DNA of 64,000 nt from a virus (Duplodnaviria; Caudoviricetes), in the IMG/VR virus record IMGVR_UViG_3300025831_000006, positions 6,331 to 70,330 of that record; one strand, 5' to 3'. The translations under genes and the position numbers were made by a program. Below are positions 1 to 7,305 of the stretch, one piece after another. How positions within the stretch are numbered: position 1 is the stretch's first letter; the number at the start of each line of letters is the position of its first letter. Below the pieces are notes generated by a model, which was given only the letters and a program-made list of their open reading frames with translations, made no database searches and was not told the DNA's origin.

Positions 1-51
1 GAATTCAAGCATTCCATTTAAGTAGGCAAATAGCTTCTTCATTGGTTTCCT

Positions 52-873
52 TTATACTGCCTTCAGGAGTTTTTCCTTGGTGGCGTTGCAAATGTTGATA
101 AGGGTTTCGTTGTCAGCACCATTAGGTATGGTGGTAGCCTTTGACCAGTTGGGCCAGAAGATATCTAGAGCAGCGCCTAACTTCACAGTGGGGTGTTGGA
201 TCTCGGGTAGTTCTTGCCATTGCATAGAGAGGATTAGTTCACGGTTAGCCCAGGCCACAATGTCAACTTCATCTTTAACGAGACAATAAATAGCGTCGTG
301 AATGAGTCCTACCGGCAGGATGTCATAGCGGTACTTGGACGCCCAAACCTTGCGCATAAAGTCCACTGCAGCACGGTTGTTCAATAAACCGTATGACTGG
401 CCCAATGCGTTACCGGCTGTGCGTCCTTCAGCAGCTGCTTCATAAGGCATCTTAGGTCCGTTGAACATCACCTGTGACAGTAATGGTGTGCGAACTCGAA
501 GACCGAATGCCACATCGACATAGCCATCCTTGGATGCCTGTTGAAGACGCTTTTGCACGTACTCATCAGACACCACGTACAGTTCGTGGTAGCCCTTCTC
601 GATAGCTTTGGCTTTGTCCTCCGGCCAGCCCAGGTTATTCACCAGGGTGTGCCAGGTGCCCTGGTAAGTCAAAGCAAAGGTTGGAGCCTTGGAATCCTGG
701 CGCAACGGATGATTGTTCTTTTTCAATTGGTTCACGGCCTTCGGATCATTCACGTCAATGCCAGGCAACTGGTCACGGAAGTAAACTACTGCCCGCAGAG
801 CATGGCCGTCATAGCCATCGGTGTTTTCTAATTGTTGAATGCTGACCACATCTGTGGAATTAATATCTAACAT
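52..873 (-). CDS. DNA polymerase (family A, N4 gp39-like), C-terminal fragment carrying motifs B and C
   Basis: TDGYDGHALRAVVYF, RQDSKAPTFALTYQGT (motif B), GRTAGNALGQSYG and IHDAIY (motif C). It has its own ATG with SD-like GGAAGGT, overlapping the HNH stop. Confidence 0.95.
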   Translation of the reverse strand: MLDINSTDVVSIQQLENTDGYDGHALRAVVYFRDQLPGIDVNDPKAVNQLKKNNHPLRQDSKAPTFALTYQGTWHTLVNNLGWPEDKAKAIEKGYHELYVVSDEYVQKRLQQASKDGYVDVAFGLRVRTPLLSQVMFNGPKMPYEAAAEGRTAGNALGQSYGLLNNRAAVDFMRKVWASKYRYDILPVGLIHDAIYCLVKDEVDIVAWANRELILSMQWQELPEIQHPTVKLGAALDIFWPNWSKATTIPNGADNETLINICNATKEKLLKAV

Positions 874-1393
874 TTACACCTTCCAGGTTTTTCAGTGCAG
901 TGAGTTTTCTTTTGCGTTGAGCTTCAGTTACCCACTCTTCTTTTCTTCCGTCTTTCTCAGCTTGGGTGCGAAGCATTCTGTTCAGTGTATTTGGGTGGTT
1001 ATTAACTTTCCCAACAATGTCCATAACGGTTTCCCCATTCAATACCCTCTCAAGCAATACCCTGCGTATATCAACGTGAACAAATCCTTTACGCAAGCCT
1101 GTTTCTAAAGCGTGTTGTGCATTGAATTCCGCAGAACACCACTCAAGATTGCTCACATGATTGTTGGCTTTGCTGCCGTCTTTGTGATTTACCTGGGGGT
1201 ACTGGTATGGGTTTGGGATGAAATGGGAAGCAACCAGTCTATGAATAGACAGTTGCTTCCCATCTAGAGTGACTATTTGATAGCCATTGGGGTTGGTTCG
1301 TTGAGTGAGTACAACATCAAGTTTTCCAGAATGCACTTCGCCATTTTCAAAAATAGCGTACATCTCGTGGTTTGCTACCTTGTAGCTTTTCAT
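860..1393 (-). CDS. Free-standing HNH homing endonuclease (NUMOD4/HNH type, C-terminal HTH-like region) inserted in the DNA polymerase gene
   Basis: IHRLVASHF..VNHKDGSKANNHVSNLEW. Probable start is ATG 1393 (GGAG at 1403-1406); the ORF track extends it to 1426. Confidence 0.9.
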   Translation of the reverse strand: MKSYKVANHEMYAIFENGEVHSGKLDVVLTQRTNPNGYQIVTLDGKQLSIHRLVASHFIPNPYQYPQVNHKDGSKANNHVSNLEWCSAEFNAQHALETGLRKGFVHVDIRRVLLERVLNGETVMDIVGKVNNHPNTLNRMLRTQAEKDGRKEEWVTEAQRKRKLTALKNLEGVNVRY

Positions 1394-3371
1394 ATAGTTC
1401 CACTCCGTTGAGTTCTTGACCATCATAATTTACTACATCTTCCTCACGGATTCGATGGGTAACGCCATTAACCGTCACATCAAACTGTTTGGAGCCTGCA
1501 TAGACTTTCAGTTTGTTCGGGTCTTTGGTTGTCAATGCCGAGATCATGTCCTCCAGTGAATTGAAGTCCGCGCCACAAAACAGCCAACCTTTAGGGCCTT
1601 CAAAGCATTCCTTGATTAGCTTGGCATACACTGATTTGGCAGGGATGTTCTGCAGGTTTGGTTCGCTCGAACTTAGCCGACCGGAGACTGTGCCACCCAG
1701 GTTAAAGCTGCCATGAAGCCATACTGTCCCATCACTCTTGAGAATAGCTTTTTCAAAAGCAGGGATGAATGTAGACAATATTTTGGCAGCCTTGCCATGA
1801 CCGATCAGCGCACCGAGCAGCTCTTTGTAAGAGGGCACATCAGTGTGGTTGATTAGCTTCTCGATGGTTTCAGCACCGGTGGCAGGTTGCTTGGTGTCCG
1901 TAATGTCGATGACTGGCAAATCCATCTGCTCATATAGCAACCGCTGCAACTGTGGCCCGGAGTTCGGGTTGAAGCACACATCACTGAACTTACTCAAGGG
2001 ATGCTGCTTAACCTTTAGCTTGGCATTGGCTGCTTCCATAGCACTGGTTTGCAAAAGCAGTTCTAGGGTTTTGATCACGCCGTTGTTTTGAATCACATCG
2101 AAATGACTCTTCTGGATCGCTTCCAGCTTGCCTTTGACCTCTTGTACTTTAGCGGCGTTCAGCGGCATCCCGGTCAGCTCAATCTGGATGATCAGCTTGA
2201 GGCTGGGCAACATAAGAGAGTGGTAAAGCTCTTCTTGCTGATCTGCCACCATCACCGGGTAATACTTGTCCTTGACGTAGTTGGTGGCCAGGGCATCGAC
2301 CAAGTTGTACTGGAGTAATTTGTCCAGTGGCACCTTGCGGATGTCCTTAACCTCTACCGCCCAGTTGCCCGCGAATTCCTGAGCCAGGGCTTTGAGGCTT
2401 AGTGCATTTCCAGCAGTCGAGTTCAGAGCCAGGTAGGCAATGATCTTGGTGTCATGAAACGATCGGGTCATGATGTCAAGCCCAGCCAGCAGACCTTTAG
2501 TGTCCAGCAAGTCCTCCATCCACAGAGCACAGATAATGGCTTTTAAGTCATAAGGTGCTTGGTGCCAGGTCAACTCTCCTTGGTACTCTGTGAAGAACTT
2601 GACTAGAAGAGCACGCACTTCCTGATTAATTCTGAAATACCCACATAGAGCCTTGCAGTCATCAGGTGCCTGGTCAATATCCGCTTGACATAGGATTGGC
2701 TTGTAGTCACAGGCAAAAGCAACCCCATTGTGCTGATCCCAGGCAAAAGCAATGGTGCCGATCCCTGCTTCGTTAAAACGCAGCGAGAAGGCCTCAATAT
2801 CACAACTGAGGCGTGGATACTGGTGTAGCGATTCAAGCGCTGCAGCAATGGCCTGAGTACCTTCTGGGTACTGTGCCGAGTGGACGATTCCCGTGCCTAA
2901 CGCTGTATAACTTCCTTTACACCCTGAAGCCAAAGTTTTTAAGCTCAGATCAAGCTTGGCGCCCAAAGAGGGGTTGAAGATCAGTGCCTGATGGTTCAGA
3001 CCCAACACCACGTTCATGTGCTCAAAGCCTTTGACTTTGCAAGGAAAGATGTATCCGAAATGTAGATCAGCTTTGATCTGACCGGCCAGCACCTTAAAGT
3101 AGCTGGAATCGGCTACGTATAGGTGCTGCACACCCAGGGAATCTAGTGCCGGCAAAAGCTTATTCAAATACTCTTTGATGAACACAGCTGGAGCCTTGCC
3201 CACCTCGTTGTAACTCAAGGTGAAAGCGATCACTTCATTGGCCTGAATGCCGAGCTGAGCCAAGGGATTGACATAGTTGGTAATTAAGTCTTGTTTGTTG
3301 AAGCTAGTACGCTTAACGAGGAGGGCAATAGGGCACACAGTAGATTGTTCGCTGAACAAGTGGTGACGCAT
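1347..3371 (-). CDS. DNA polymerase (family A, N4 gp39-like), N-terminal fragment with 3'-5' exonuclease and motif A
   Basis: CDIEAF (ExoI), GTVSGRLSSSEPNLQNIP, GADFNSLEDMISALTTKDPNKLKVY, followed by a 50-aa non-polymerase tail. Confidence 0.95.
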   Translation of the reverse strand: MRHHLFSEQSTVCPIALLVKRTSFNKQDLITNYVNPLAQLGIQANEVIAFTLSYNEVGKAPAVFIKEYLNKLLPALDSLGVQHLYVADSSYFKVLAGQIKADLHFGYIFPCKVKGFEHMNVVLGLNHQALIFNPSLGAKLDLSLKTLASGCKGSYTALGTGIVHSAQYPEGTQAIAAALESLHQYPRLSCDIEAFSLRFNEAGIGTIAFAWDQHNGVAFACDYKPILCQADIDQAPDDCKALCGYFRINQEVRALLVKFFTEYQGELTWHQAPYDLKAIICALWMEDLLDTKGLLAGLDIMTRSFHDTKIIAYLALNSTAGNALSLKALAQEFAGNWAVEVKDIRKVPLDKLLQYNLVDALATNYVKDKYYPVMVADQQEELYHSLMLPSLKLIIQIELTGMPLNAAKVQEVKGKLEAIQKSHFDVIQNNGVIKTLELLLQTSAMEAANAKLKVKQHPLSKFSDVCFNPNSGPQLQRLLYEQMDLPVIDITDTKQPATGAETIEKLINHTDVPSYKELLGALIGHGKAAKILSTFIPAFEKAILKSDGTVWLHGSFNLGGTVSGRLSSSEPNLQNIPAKSVYAKLIKECFEGPKGWLFCGADFNSLEDMISALTTKDPNKLKVYAGSKQFDVTVNGVTHRIREEDVVNYDGQELNGVELYEKLQGSKPRDVRYF

Positions 3372-3379
3372 TGATTTCC

Positions 3380-3898
3380 TTAAATGAGCAGGTTAGTGAC
3401 CATGCGAGACTTCATCAGATTGATAGAAGCTTGGTTCTTGTCACAGAGTAGGGTGATGGTTTCGTCAGAGAGGCATTTGCCACGACAGGGACAAGTATTG
3501 ATTAAGGCCTGCAACGGGTGGTGAACAGCCTGCGGAAGTAAGCGCAGGTAGTCATGCAGTTCGTTGGAGGAATTAAGCACCTGATTGATGAATCCTAGAA
3601 CGAAAGGTAGCTCTTTTTCGTTGAGCAGCTTGACTTCCTTGAGGTATTCGTTCATCGCCGGTTGGAGTTGAATCACCAGCCGGTTTATCTTGCGTGGCAA
3701 AGGTGTGGTATCACAGCTGTACAACACGTTTCTGTACATAAAGGACTGATGCGAAGCTCCACTCAATATCGTATTCTTAATGATCAACTTATTGAGTCGC
3801 TGTTTAAATTGCTTTTCAATTGGCTGATACAAATGGGTGTAAAGAACATCTTTGATCTGCTGTTTGGTTCGGGGATCGTGTTGCAATTGCTCTGCCAT
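3380..3898 (-). CDS. Conserved N4-like hypothetical protein (between helicase and polymerase)
   Basis: 172-aa ORF with good coupling to pol; syntenic with N4-like phages. Confidence 0.7.
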   Translation of the reverse strand: MAEQLQHDPRTKQQIKDVLYTHLYQPIEKQFKQRLNKLIIKNTILSGASHQSFMYRNVLYSCDTTPLPRKINRLVIQLQPAMNEYLKEVKLLNEKELPFVLGFINQVLNSSNELHDYLRLLPQAVHHPLQALINTCPCRGKCLSDETITLLCDKNQASINLMKSRMVTNLLI

Positions 3899-3925
3899 GT
3901 TGAAGCCTAGTAAGTAGGCCCCTTT

Positions 3926-4597
3926 TTATGGGTGCCTGTTTGTTTGAAAATCTTGCAAGTTGTTGGCGTCGATATATGAACAGCGTGCTTTCCATGCTGC
4001 CTCTTCTGTGTCAAAACTGCCTATGGTGATGCGCTTTTTATTTACCGTGATTGCAGACACCCACTTATTTTTCGCGCTGCGAAAATGCACTCCTGTATAT
4101 ATAGAGCTGTGCTTCTGTGTACGCCGATTTCTAGACTGGGTAGTTGGAGTAGCCCATCTACAGTTTTCTGGAGAGTAGCCTTTGTTTACATTTTCTCGAT
4201 CAAGCTCTAACTCATCTGAGTAACCTGAGCTGACTGCCCATGCCAAAAAGCTTTCAATATCCACTGCCCATTGAGAGCAAATAGTTACGCCTCTACCACC
4301 ATAGCGGGGATAAGACCTGTTGTTAGGGTTAGTACATCTTTGCACCATAGCTGTGTATACACGGTATAGACGAGTGTTTCTATAACCATGGGTAGTTACC
4401 CTTGCTGATGTAACTTCTTTACGCAGACATCCACAACTAAGGGTGTTTCCTGACCGTATATTGCTTATTGCGGATTCAAATAAGTTTCCACAGGAGCACT
4501 GTGTCAAAACAAACTGTTTTCTGCCACGAACTCCCAGACTCTTTAATACGGTCAAACGCCCATAAAGATGCCCGACAGCATCAAAAAGTTTAGCCAT
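3926..4597 (-). CDS. Free-standing HNH endonuclease with C-terminal AP2 DNA-binding domain
   Basis: GRLTV..CSCGN..SCGC, RCTNP..YPRYGGRGVTIC, LDRENVNKGYSPENCRWAT, then AP2-like YTGVHF..KWVSAI..IGSFDTEEAA. Confidence 0.9.
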   Translation of the reverse strand: MAKLFDAVGHLYGRLTVLKSLGVRGRKQFVLTQCSCGNLFESAISNIRSGNTLSCGCLRKEVTSARVTTHGYRNTRLYRVYTAMVQRCTNPNNRSYPRYGGRGVTICSQWAVDIESFLAWAVSSGYSDELELDRENVNKGYSPENCRWATPTTQSRNRRTQKHSSIYTGVHFRSAKNKWVSAITVNKKRITIGSFDTEEAAWKARCSYIDANNLQDFQTNRHP

Positions 4598-4609: not shown

Positions 4610-5872
4610 TTAAATCAGGTCACCTGTGAAGTACACGTTATCTCTTGCTCTAGAAACGGCAACGTATAACATCCTGGCAACTTGTTCCCCGCTATTGCAG
4701 CGTCGCACATCGTCAAGGTCAATAAATACTTTTCCATATGTACTCCCTTGCGATTTATTAATGGTACTCGCGTAAGCTGCACGGAGGTCAACCCATTCCG
4801 ACTCGATCTGAGCAATCAGATGCACTTCGTTCTCCGCTTTGGCTTTACGAATGCGAGCATTCTTGGAGTCCAAGGTCTTGGGCATAAAGGCCTGCATGGA
4901 ATGATTCATGGTAAAGGCATTGCCCAGTACACCCAGCCGTTCAATCTCTTCTGAGATGCCAGTGATTTGAACCAGTTGGTCAGTCTTGATGGACTGTCGG
5001 CCGAGCTGTAGAAAAGAGTTGCACACCGCGTAGTCATCTACTGCGAATTGTGGGTCACCCTTCACATAGTTACGCACGAAGTGATTAAAACCAATTACAC
5101 ACTTATTGGTCCAGGCCAATATTTTGGAATCCTGGTAACGCCAGTCAGGTCTAGCAAACTCCACTTCAATCGCTGTGTTGAAGGCATCACGATCCAGGTA
5201 CTGGATGTGGTGGCCATCAGGCTTGAAGCTGAAGAAATTTCCGGTATTGACGGTGTGGCGGAACTTGGTAGACAGGTCCACAATTGGGTTACCCTCTGCT
5301 TGTCGTACCACCTGCGTTAAAGCTGCACCAGAGAACTTGGCATCAAATACCGGTGTGCCAGAAGACTTTACAGGAGTTAGTTGTGCTGGATCCCCAACGA
5401 AGACAATCTTGCAGTTTTTGGTTTTGCTGAAGATGTACTTCAGAAGCTGACTGTCAATGTAACTAGCTTCGTCAATGATCAACAGGTAGCCTTCCTTGAC
5501 CTCTTGATTTTTCGAAATTAGTGTGGTGACATTGGTTTTGTAGTCGGTCTGTACCCGCAAGCCCAAGAACGAGTGAATGGTGCCTGCTTCCATGCCAGTG
5601 ATGGTAGCTAGGTTCTCAGCCGCTTTGTTGGTCGTGGCAGTGAGTTCCACCGCATATTCACGCTGGTTTGGATCGATCAATCGGGCGGTCTTCATGAAAC
5701 CAGGTAAGCAATCGAGTAGGGTACGAACCAGGGTGGATTTACCGCAACCAGAGTAACCCGACAGCACAAAGACTGTTTCGATCGGATCACACAGGAATTG
5801 GTACAAAGCGTCCATAGCCCCCTGTTGGTCAACAGTCAGAGTGAATTCAGGTTGTGCAAGTGCAGTGTTCAT
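4610..5872 (-). CDS. Dda/RecD-like SF1B DNA helicase
   Basis: Walker A GYSGCGKS, IIDEAS, GDPAQL, AYASTINKSQGSTY, YVAVSRAR. Confidence 0.93.
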   Translation of the reverse strand: MNTALAQPEFTLTVDQQGAMDALYQFLCDPIETVFVLSGYSGCGKSTLVRTLLDCLPGFMKTARLIDPNQREYAVELTATTNKAAENLATITGMEAGTIHSFLGLRVQTDYKTNVTTLISKNQEVKEGYLLIIDEASYIDSQLLKYIFSKTKNCKIVFVGDPAQLTPVKSSGTPVFDAKFSGAALTQVVRQAEGNPIVDLSTKFRHTVNTGNFFSFKPDGHHIQYLDRDAFNTAIEVEFARPDWRYQDSKILAWTNKCVIGFNHFVRNYVKGDPQFAVDDYAVCNSFLQLGRQSIKTDQLVQITGISEEIERLGVLGNAFTMNHSMQAFMPKTLDSKNARIRKAKAENEVHLIAQIESEWVDLRAAYASTINKSQGSTYGKVFIDLDDVRRCNSGEQVARMLYVAVSRARDNVYFTGDLI

Positions 5873-6189: not shown

Positions 6190-7305
6190 TTATCCTTTCA
6201 TTGAATAGTGAATAACTTTACCAAATGGTGCAACAAATGCCGGACTATCATGAATTAACCAGACCGTGTTTGTTTTGCTTTCAGTAGAATAAAAATAAAA
6301 GCCACCATCACTGAATACCAATAGCAATTGGGGTTTATTGACATTGGCCCAGTCCAGCACCGGATTAATTAATGTGCCCCCACGGCCGGTGAATTTCACA
6401 TTCATTAGCTCTTGAATGCTTCCAATATCATTTACTGATTTGATTTCAGTATCAAATTGAATCAGCGTTAGTTTCTCCGGCTTCATCATTCGCAATATCG
6501 AATGCATCTCTGAGACGAAGCGCAGGAAATCAGCATCACTGACGGAACCAGAGGTATCTACTGCTACTGCGATATTCATCAGGTTCTCGCTGTACATACT
6601 CGGCAAGTGGTGCTTTGGAAAATACCGGCGATTGGGTTTGCGCCAGGTATAGTCGTTCTTGGCAAAGGCCTGGAGATACTTTTGCAATATCCGGTTCCAT
6701 GGCAGCTTAGGTTTAAGCAACCGGCTTAGAAATATCTCGATTTCACCGGGAATAGTGCCTGGCTTGTCCTGAGATATTTTGGACTGGATTGAAGCTTGCA
6801 CCAGAATGTCCTGCATCGTGCGTTGCATTTCCTCGGGGTCACCATCACCCGGAACCAAATCTTGCATATTGGGTTTGCCAGGATTATTGGGGAGTAAAGC
6901 GTAGACCTCTTCTACTGACAAGCCTTTGTATTGTGGGTCGGCATAGCCATTTTTAGGCATTTTGTAGCCGCGATCAATTAGTTGCAGATTAATAACATGA
7001 TCTGCGGCGATATTCCAGCGATCTGGACAGGCGCCGGGAATCCTACGAACCATGTGCAAATAGGCACAGTGCATCGTCTCATGCAATAACAGGAATACCC
7101 GCTCCTCAGAATCTAAGTCCATAAAGAATTTGGTACCAAACTTAATATATTTGCCATTGGTGCAGGCAGTAGACACTGTGTCATCAAAACTGTGACGCAA
7201 GGAGAAGCATATTGTTGTAAAAAATGCAGAATCGGCCTTGGCCATTAATTGAATCTTGGCTTTACTCAACGCCATAATATGGTCGTTATTAATAACGGTT
7301 GTCAT
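6190..7305 (-). CDS. Metallopeptidase-like (HExxH) plus vWA domain protein (N4 gp25-like)
   Basis: LLHETMH zincin motif, WNIAADHVIN, MIDAS DTSGS, GRGGT. Confidence 0.9.
   Translation of the reverse strand: MTTVINNDHIMALSKAKIQLMAKADSAFFTTICFSLRHSFDDTVSTACTNGKYIKFGTKFFMDLDSEERVFLLLHETMHCAYLHMVRRIPGACPDRWNIAADHVINLQLIDRGYKMPKNGYADPQYKGLSVEEVYALLPNNPGKPNMQDLVPGDGDPEEMQRTMQDILVQASIQSKISQDKPGTIPGEIEIFLSRLLKPKLPWNRILQKYLQAFAKNDYTWRKPNRRYFPKHHLPSMYSENLMNIAVAVDTSGSVSDADFLRFVSEMHSILRMMKPEKLTLIQFDTEIKSVNDIGSIQELMNVKFTGRGGTLINPVLDWANVNKPQLLLVFSDGGFYFYSTESKTNTVWLIHDSPAFVAPFGKVIHYSMKG

Follow-up and report, generated by a model that had tools for sequence, protein, structure and literature searches.

How is a DNA polymerase made when its gene has been broken in two by an endonuclease gene? 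This question is raised by the family A polymerase (PolA) locus in a 64,000-nucleotide stretch of DNA (hereafter the window), positions 6,331 to 70,330 of the virus record IMGVR_UViG_3300025831_000006 (Duplodnaviria; Caudoviricetes). The record is 70,330 bp long and rated 95% complete, and its relatives are Schitoviridae. Its polymerase gene is split after the motif KLKVY by a free-standing HNH endonuclease gene, and at the break the upstream half (N-half) ends in an additional tail (N-tail), while the downstream half (C-half) begins with another (C-tail). We found here a tail module like that of the MobA element of phage T4, located in a new gene and accompanied by a different nuclease. The polymerase is probably a two-subunit enzyme that undergoes no splicing, its halves being held in register by a domain assembled in trans from both tails.

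Organization of the split polymerase locus

The locus consists of the following features; the two Shine-Dalgarno sites were read from the sequence.

1347–3371, minus strand: N-terminal half of DNA polymerase A, an open reading frame (ORF) of 674 aa with the exonuclease region, thumb and palm motif A, and with a C-terminal 50-aa tail encoded by the cassette
1350–1499, minus strand: N-tail, an extension of 50 aa that resembles a C-terminal extension (CTE) and directly follows KLKVY; missing from the intact polymerases of N4 and phCDa
1403–1406, minus strand: GGAG, Shine-Dalgarno site of the HNH gene, nine bases 5' of ATG 1393 and within the N-tail coding sequence
860–1393, minus strand: free-standing HNH homing-endonuclease gene of the I-HmuI / HNH_3 type, 177 aa from ATG 1393
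879–884, minus strand: GGAAGG, Shine-Dalgarno site of the C-half, five bases 5' of ATG 873 and within the 3' end of the HNH gene
823–873, minus strand: C-tail, an extension of 17 aa that resembles an N-terminal extension (NTE) and precedes TDGYDGH; its counterpart in the longer, 27-aa C-tails of the family is their two-stranded beta hairpin
52–873, minus strand: C-terminal half of DNA polymerase A, 273 aa, with motifs B and C; Pfam PF00476 profile positions 200–343

An earlier note on this DNA, made from the sequence alone, had placed the break between KLKVY and TDGYDGH, with a tail on either side, an HNH gene in between, and a Shine-Dalgarno site and ATG belonging to the C-half itself. All these elements were recovered at the same positions. 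Pfam DNA_pol_A (PF00476) covers residues 449–626 of the N-half, which also matches phrog_17 and has more than 100 split homologues of 620–700 aa. The ORF of the C-half is uninterrupted; from residue 18 onward it is collinear with intact Schitoviridae polymerases and 53–59% identical to them. Motif A is encoded on the N-half and motifs B and C on the C-half.

The HNH ORF overlaps the N-half by 47 nt and the C-half by 14 nt, and the three genes lie in three different frames. Its most likely start is ATG 1393, an upstream ATG at 1426 being a possible alternative. The geometry with which the two extensions overlap the HNH gene is identical in about 30 related loci, and an AGGAG-like site equivalent to the C-half Shine-Dalgarno is also found 5' of the C-half ATG in related loci. 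The HNH protein belongs to Pfam HNH_3, matches I-HmuI (PDB 1u3e, E 4.6e-10) and phrog_59 (E 4e-33), and is 40–44% identical to the HNH proteins located at the same position in VEc25, Pylas, Pollock and SP5M.

Insertion of the element and its distribution

In intact relatives KLKVY is joined straight to TDGYDGH (N4) or IDGYDGH (phCDa). Phages N4 and VEc25 belong to the same species, the former without and the latter with the element, and alignment of their DNA revealed a single 695-nt insertion at exactly this codon. VEc25 has the same three-gene arrangement as the window, where the insert is 677 nt long. A single in-frame intein is excluded, because neither length is divisible by three. Mismatches between N4 and VEc25 pile up in the 200 nt upstream of the insertion (18, against a background of about 2 per 100 nt), as co-conversion during homing would leave. 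Judged from these alignments, both the N-tail and the C-tail are part of the inserted cassette.

The same split at the same codon was found in Pollock, Pylas, the VEc25 group and SP5M/PD205, as well as in more than 100 metagenomic protein clusters (620–700 aa); with such recurrence the arrangement is not due to chance. N-tails of the same type also terminate polymerases in which the break lies at a second site, some 25 residues downstream of the first, so the tail travels with the element and not with the site. In three contigs the HNH gene was lost while the split and both tails were kept, the gap from the stop codon to the next ATG being 17 nt in L013, 36 nt in L113 and 78 nt in L096.

It should be mentioned that the polymerase of one contig, L110 (L110:963–1244 and L110:295–480), is apparently split at both sites and thus falls into three pieces, with an N-tail-like motif at the end of each upstream piece. 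In two contigs with second-site splits, L019 and L031, the ORFs between the polymerase halves are not HNH endonucleases; the nuclease there therefore seems to have been replaced or lost.

Conservation of the tails at the protein level

The N-tail contains a conserved motif of about 40 residues, most members being 29–40% identical to the window (alignment A1, 37 sequences), and this motif is retained among polymerases that are only 50–60% identical to each other. In the polymerase frame, the proportion of synonymous differences (pS) in the N-tail is 0.67 and that of nonsynonymous differences (pN) is 0.28, with third-position changes about twice as frequent as the others; neither of the two remaining frames shows this, pN exceeding pS in both. 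For the C-tail hairpin the in-frame values are pS 0.79 versus pN 0.44 (C-tail alignment A5). Substitution patterns of this kind show that both tails are translated and are under purifying selection.

A profile search of 1.84 billion representative proteins gave 87 hits, which comprised polymerase N-halves or their fragments and repeat proteins; no unsplit polymerase with the N-tail motif was among them. Two of the repeat proteins were checked (P0122 and P0179) and proved to be TPR proteins; what the profile matches in them is a stretch some 20 residues long that recurs up to 8 times (E 7e-24). We take the repeat-protein hits as a chance resemblance of motifs.

The combined length of the two tails is 67 aa in the window, compared with about 70 aa for the main family; in the subfamily of the window the C-tail is shorter and the N-tail longer. 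Mean charge in the main family is −4.6 for N-tails and +2.0 for C-tails.

Relationship to the MobA element of T4

The closest known system is the MobA element of T4 and relatives (topoisomerase gene 39 / mobA / gene 60; Bonocora et al. 2011, cited in PMC11461880). CTEs of Topo2L were gathered from eight phage lineages and compared with 129 PolA N-tails using hhalign. The probability of a match was 88% (P 3.1e-6, 33 columns, score 29.6), against 0.4% for the reversed control; none of forty column shuffles exceeded 7.6% or a score of 16. Furthermore, the model of the window N-tail superposes on residues 478–518 of 8yo3 with 27% identity. In whole-genome searches with the PolA N-tail hidden Markov model (HMM), the tails of T4 and Aeh1 were not picked up. 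The profile-to-profile match shows homology between the N-tail and the gp39 CTE of the T4 MobA element, and a split gene with clasp tails is thus not without precedent.

In T4 the two tails, on gp39 and gp60, make up one TOPRIM insertion of about 70 aa that was visualized by cryo-EM, lies outside the enzyme, is missing from unsplit homologues and was named an assembly bracket or chaperone (PMC11461880, PDB 8YO3). The CTE and NTE are always kept in split topoisomerases, even after nuclease loss, and such tails were proposed as a general rescue for split ORFs, although MobA elements were stated to be exclusive to Topo2L (Manning and Atkins, bioRxiv 10.1101/2022.08.31.505936). The earlier note, which proposed a clasp, missed the precedent: for the MobA element both the idea and a cryo-EM structure are already published.

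The two systems share several features: (i) a free-standing HNH gene splits an essential replication gene; (ii) the upstream half carries an in-frame CTE (about 44 aa in T4) whose coding sequence overlaps the nuclease start out of frame; (iii) the downstream half has a new start and an N-terminal extension that overlaps the nuclease end; and (iv) the tails are kept after nuclease loss. They differ in that the host gene here is the family A polymerase of Schitoviridae, interrupted at two sites, and not Topo2L. The window nuclease is I-HmuI-like and has no BLASTP similarity to HY01 MobA. Neither a 50-nt translational bypass nor a long replaced homology region is present at the polymerase locus, and the PolA C-tail (17–27 aa) is not detectably similar to the T4 NTE.

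Thus, the strategy of tails plus nuclease is not confined to the topoisomerase, contrary to the MobA survey. Since a homologous upstream tail occurs with a different nuclease, in a different essential gene and phage family, at two sites and in more than 100 clusters, it represents a portable module for the rescue of split genes, a third solution beside introns and inteins. Split Schitoviridae polymerases with conserved tails were not described in any paper that our literature searches turned up.

Predicted structure of the tails

Folded alone with AlphaFold2, the N-tail of the window (model m3e76c6673c21) is predicted to form four beta strands and one helix (tail residues 5–41; per-residue confidence, pLDDT, 79–89). 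Its last nine residues, encoded in the overlap with the HNH start, are disordered. A model of both tails together was obtained from contig L113, one of those without the HNH gene. Its N-tail and C-half start are separated by two in-frame stops, both TGA (L113:1780–1803); with TGA translated as Trp a single chain results, which was folded on alignment A6. In this model the tails have pLDDT of about 87–93; the N-tail again forms four strands and a helix, and the C-tail forms a two-strand hairpin (strands 86–89 and 95–102) that packs with the N-tail strands at a pLDDT of about 90. Prediction of a complex between the window N-tail (alignment A2) and the first 36 residues of the C-half (A5) gave a score of 0.26, the mark set by the tool being 0.32, a result that counts for binding as little as against it.

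A probable two-subunit polymerase

Based on these data, the following scheme can be proposed. A mobile homing-endonuclease cassette was inserted into the polymerase gene in a loop about 20 residues after motif A. It brought three parts, each in a frame of its own: a tail in the frame of the upstream half, which it completes; the I-HmuI-like HNH gene; and a new ribosome-binding site and start codon with a short tail that begin the downstream half. With the three parts in three frames, the polymerase would be made as two polypeptides, motif A being separated from motifs B and C, and neither RNA nor protein would be spliced. In trans, the two tails would then form a single small beta domain (six strands, one helix), situated outside the polymerase and keeping its halves in register, which is the role proposed for the CTE/NTE TOPRIM insertion of T4 gp39/gp60. 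The nuclease gene between the tails may drive the spread of the element and later decay. We infer that the tails associate physically and adopt a Hint-like fold. The suggestion that the tails serve as a conserved non-covalent clasp is supported. Two natural peptides of about 42 and 17 residues that bring the parts of a split polymerase back together would be of interest to protein engineers.

The split of Aeh1 nrdA by mobE (PMC2677866; Manning and Atkins), to which the locus had been likened, is a parallel in organization. There, too, an HNH gene splits an enzyme into two polypeptides with cassette-derived tails, and the halves assemble non-covalently, as proposed here for the PolA halves. The likeness does not extend to the tail sequences: those of Aeh1 NrdA match neither HMM, and a search of the Aeh1 genome with the PolA tail profile gave no hit.

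Several points weigh against a clasp of this kind. First, the binding of tail to tail is something that we infer. Second, the paired-tail model is an artificial read-through of a relative, L113, and does not consist of the window sequences. Third, in the subfamily of the window both tails are acidic (−2 for the N-tail and −3 for the C-tail), so the charge complementarity of the main family does not apply there. Fourth, hhalign comparison of the C-tail with the T4 NTE gave 1%, which is not significant, although the profiles (19–30 columns) are too short for a decision. Finally, deletion of the tails of Aeh1 NrdA is reported to have left the halves able to bind each other and to have abolished activity (Manning and Atkins, bioRxiv 10.1101/2022.08.31.505936); tails can therefore matter beyond simple tethering.

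Possible origin of the tail domain from a split intein

Fractured genes in which split inteins flank a free-standing homing endonuclease are well documented (Dassa et al. 2009, PMC2677866), examples being gp41-1, NrdJ-1 and Aes123 PolB1 (PDB 9HTH). The order of half, tail, nuclease, tail, half is the same as in the window; the tails associate across the break, as we suggest for PolA; and the combination of an acidic N-tail with a basic C-tail is shared with the PolA main family. In contrast, the PolA tails would correspond to only about half of the Hint fold, have none of the splicing residues, so that the halves stay separate, and show no similarity that could be found at the sequence level.

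The second lobe of IntN and the first hairpin of IntC form the part of real split inteins that captures the partner fragment. The earlier note had compared the N-tail with the former and the C-tail with the first IntC strands, and the predicted structures agree with this assignment. When the paired-tail model was compared with 48,161 PDB chains, Hint-fold proteins accounted for 25 of the 50 VIA matches listed, including the top nine. The tight alignments (6riy, 7cfv, 6zgq and similar) map to the same part of the Hint fold, positions of about 45–120, with a root-mean-square deviation of 2.5–3.4 A over 49–57 residues. With the model of the window N-tail alone, inteins were again prominent (8 of the 19 structure hits), most of them aligned on the second lobe of IntN, e.g., residues 51–99 of Npu DnaE IntN. 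The coverage of the tight alignments also bears out the remark that a total of 67 aa is far too short for a complete Hint fold.

None of the other searches provided a link to Hint domains. A Foldseek search of PDB with the paired-tail model, a check that had been suggested, gave no match at E 0.001 or better, the Aes123 intein 9hth being fourth with E 0.52; Foldseek against the viral BFVD library gave nothing significant. In the ESM Atlas, feature neighbours were only polymerase fragments, and structure neighbours were LytTR- or MazE-like with TM of 0.55 or below. None of the 37 tails matched a Pfam Hint or intein family at E up to 10. The best hit of a PDB profile search with the tails was again 9hth, the split intein of a phage polymerase, only at E 0.24. 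No intein was present among the 87 profile hits in 1.84 billion proteins, and hhalign of the tails against the real PolA intein family of P0014 gave 0.1%, this intein profile being narrow (five sequences). No tie between the tails and Hint domains emerged from any sequence or profile method, so descent from an intein rests on a predicted fold at modest Z.

Intein ancestry of the tails, as judged from these models, is therefore plausible but unproven. Of the proposal that the tails are a vestigial split intein kept as a clasp, the conserved non-covalent clasp finds support, and the vestige stays at this level. In its full form, the hypothesis states that the CTE/NTE bracket is a degenerate split intein both in N4-like polymerases and in T4 gp39/gp60, from which the second IntN lobe and the first IntC hairpin were left, while the lobes of the splice junctions and the chemistry were lost. 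We give it slightly less than an even chance. If it is true, endonuclease-only fractured genes descend from fractured genes with split inteins, and the bracket is a natural non-covalent tag of about 60 residues for the assembly of split proteins. A half-Hint fold, if it holds, would mark an evolutionary route from split inteins to non-covalent brackets, for which the structure 8YO3 is already available. Our literature searches revealed no paper on non-splicing Hint remnants acting as clasps.

According to the strongest alternative, the polymerase has two subunits and the bracket the same role, but the tails are not derived from an intein and their half-Hint likeness reflects convergence on a common small beta-hairpin arrangement. 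The empty Pfam, Foldseek and large-scale profile searches, the 0.1% obtained with the PolA intein family and the E value of 0.24 in PDB are what convergence predicts. On the other side are the share of Hint folds among the structural matches, the mapping of tight alignments to one and the same Hint region, its repetition with the window N-tail alone, and the fact that the sole weak sequence hit in PDB is a phage polymerase split intein. This alternative, too, falls a little below an even probability.

Explanations of the tails other than a clasp

The tails might be kept mainly for the endonuclease, by disrupting its own target site and by translational coupling or regulation of the HNH gene and the downstream half. 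The positions of the signals are in favour of this: the start and the Shine-Dalgarno site of the HNH gene lie within the N-tail coding sequence, and the Shine-Dalgarno site of the C-half lies within the 3' end of the HNH gene. The T4 NTE region contributes to bypass and also protects against nicking by MobA (Manning and Atkins, bioRxiv 10.1101/2022.08.31.505936). However, constraint acts on the amino acids and not only on the nucleotides near the starts, and the tails are still conserved in contigs without any HNH gene. We regard this explanation as improbable.

A still lower probability is assigned to the view that the tails are tolerated leftovers of the insertion, i.e., read-through to the first stop on one side and an accidental start on the other, with no function of their own. 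It would account for the end of the N-tail and the beginning of the C-tail, both of which overlap the HNH gene and consist of disordered or poorly conserved residues. Leftovers would hardly show purifying selection in the polymerase frame only, a motif conserved across polymerases just 50–60% identical, the survival of both tails after HNH loss, or the same tail at a second site and in T4-like topoisomerases.

Absence of RNA and protein splicing

Splicing of the split polymerase, whether of RNA or of protein, is very unlikely. In the first case, a group I or other intron with the HNH gene would be removed from the mRNA and one polymerase ORF restored, as the annotators of Klebsiella phage Pylas assumed. 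Their record (MH899585; L002) joins the halves as one coding sequence (CDS); its sequence has the same order of stop, HNH gene and start as the window, and the annotation is corrected by the present analysis. U is indeed the last exon base before the insert, and in a related phage this polymerase is interrupted, at a third site, by a true group I intron that contains an HNH gene. Yet a permissive Rfam search (RF00028, E up to 10) of window positions 1–4000, L013, L010 and L002 found no group I intron, while the same search detected the intron of that relative, nACB1, at E 1.2e-8 and thus works on this type of target. In L013, which has no HNH gene, the whole insert is only 233 nt. The last base of the window insert is C and not the terminal G; the flanks of the supposed intron evolve as protein-coding sequence; and each half has its own stop, Shine-Dalgarno site and ATG in every lineage. 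We see practically no room for an intron here, in agreement with the earlier doubts about RNA splicing.

Group I introns with HNH genes in phage family A polymerases (SPO1 I-HmuI; nACB1) involve the same nuclease family (1u3e) and the same host gene. The window differs from them in having no intron RNA, and restoration would proceed by protein assembly instead of RNA splicing. In Acinetobacter phage nACB1 (L003:4142–4944) the HNH gene lies in a group I intron (RF00028; flanks E 1e-8 and 2e-5) of a homologous polymerase, within the motif B region, and the record lists two separate polymerase CDSs.

It is equally far-fetched that protein trans-splicing joins the halves, with the tails acting as a minimal active split intein: the C-tail of the window does end in Asn followed by Thr and the predicted fold is Hint-like, but both tails together have 67 aa versus about 130 aa for the smallest Hint domains, and the residues on which splicing depends are missing. 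The first residue of the N-tail is Ala in the window, not a nucleophile (Cys, Ser or Thr), and is A, M, S, E, T, I, Q, L, V or R across 101 tails. N, S, Q, K, R or I occupies the position before the junction, so the Asn-Thr pair is not conserved, and the preceding residue is Gly or Glu and not the penultimate His. The block A lobe and TxxH are absent, the stretch structurally equivalent to TxxH of block B reading R-[DE]-[DE]-D. The catalytic residues are thus missing, as had been noticed from the window alone, while the option of an unusually small splicing element, left open at that time, fails on the variability of both end positions. A survey for a full intein at the same site had also been advised; none was found directly after KLKVY among 167 loci.

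Additional observations

A canonical intein of 277 aa (Pfam Hint_2 / Intein_splicing) with a Cys start and a His-Asn end before Ser was found in metagenomic PolA relatives (P0014 and P0204–P0207). It occupies a different site, inside the conserved GRLSS-(S)xPN motif, and in P0014 it occurs alongside a tail-type split after KLKVY.

A further ORF of 223 aa, HNH_3/AP2-like, is located in the window at 3926–4597 on the minus strand, between a helicase gene (4610–5872) and the ORF at 3380–3898 upstream of the polymerase. It probably encodes the second free-standing homing endonuclease in the replication module.

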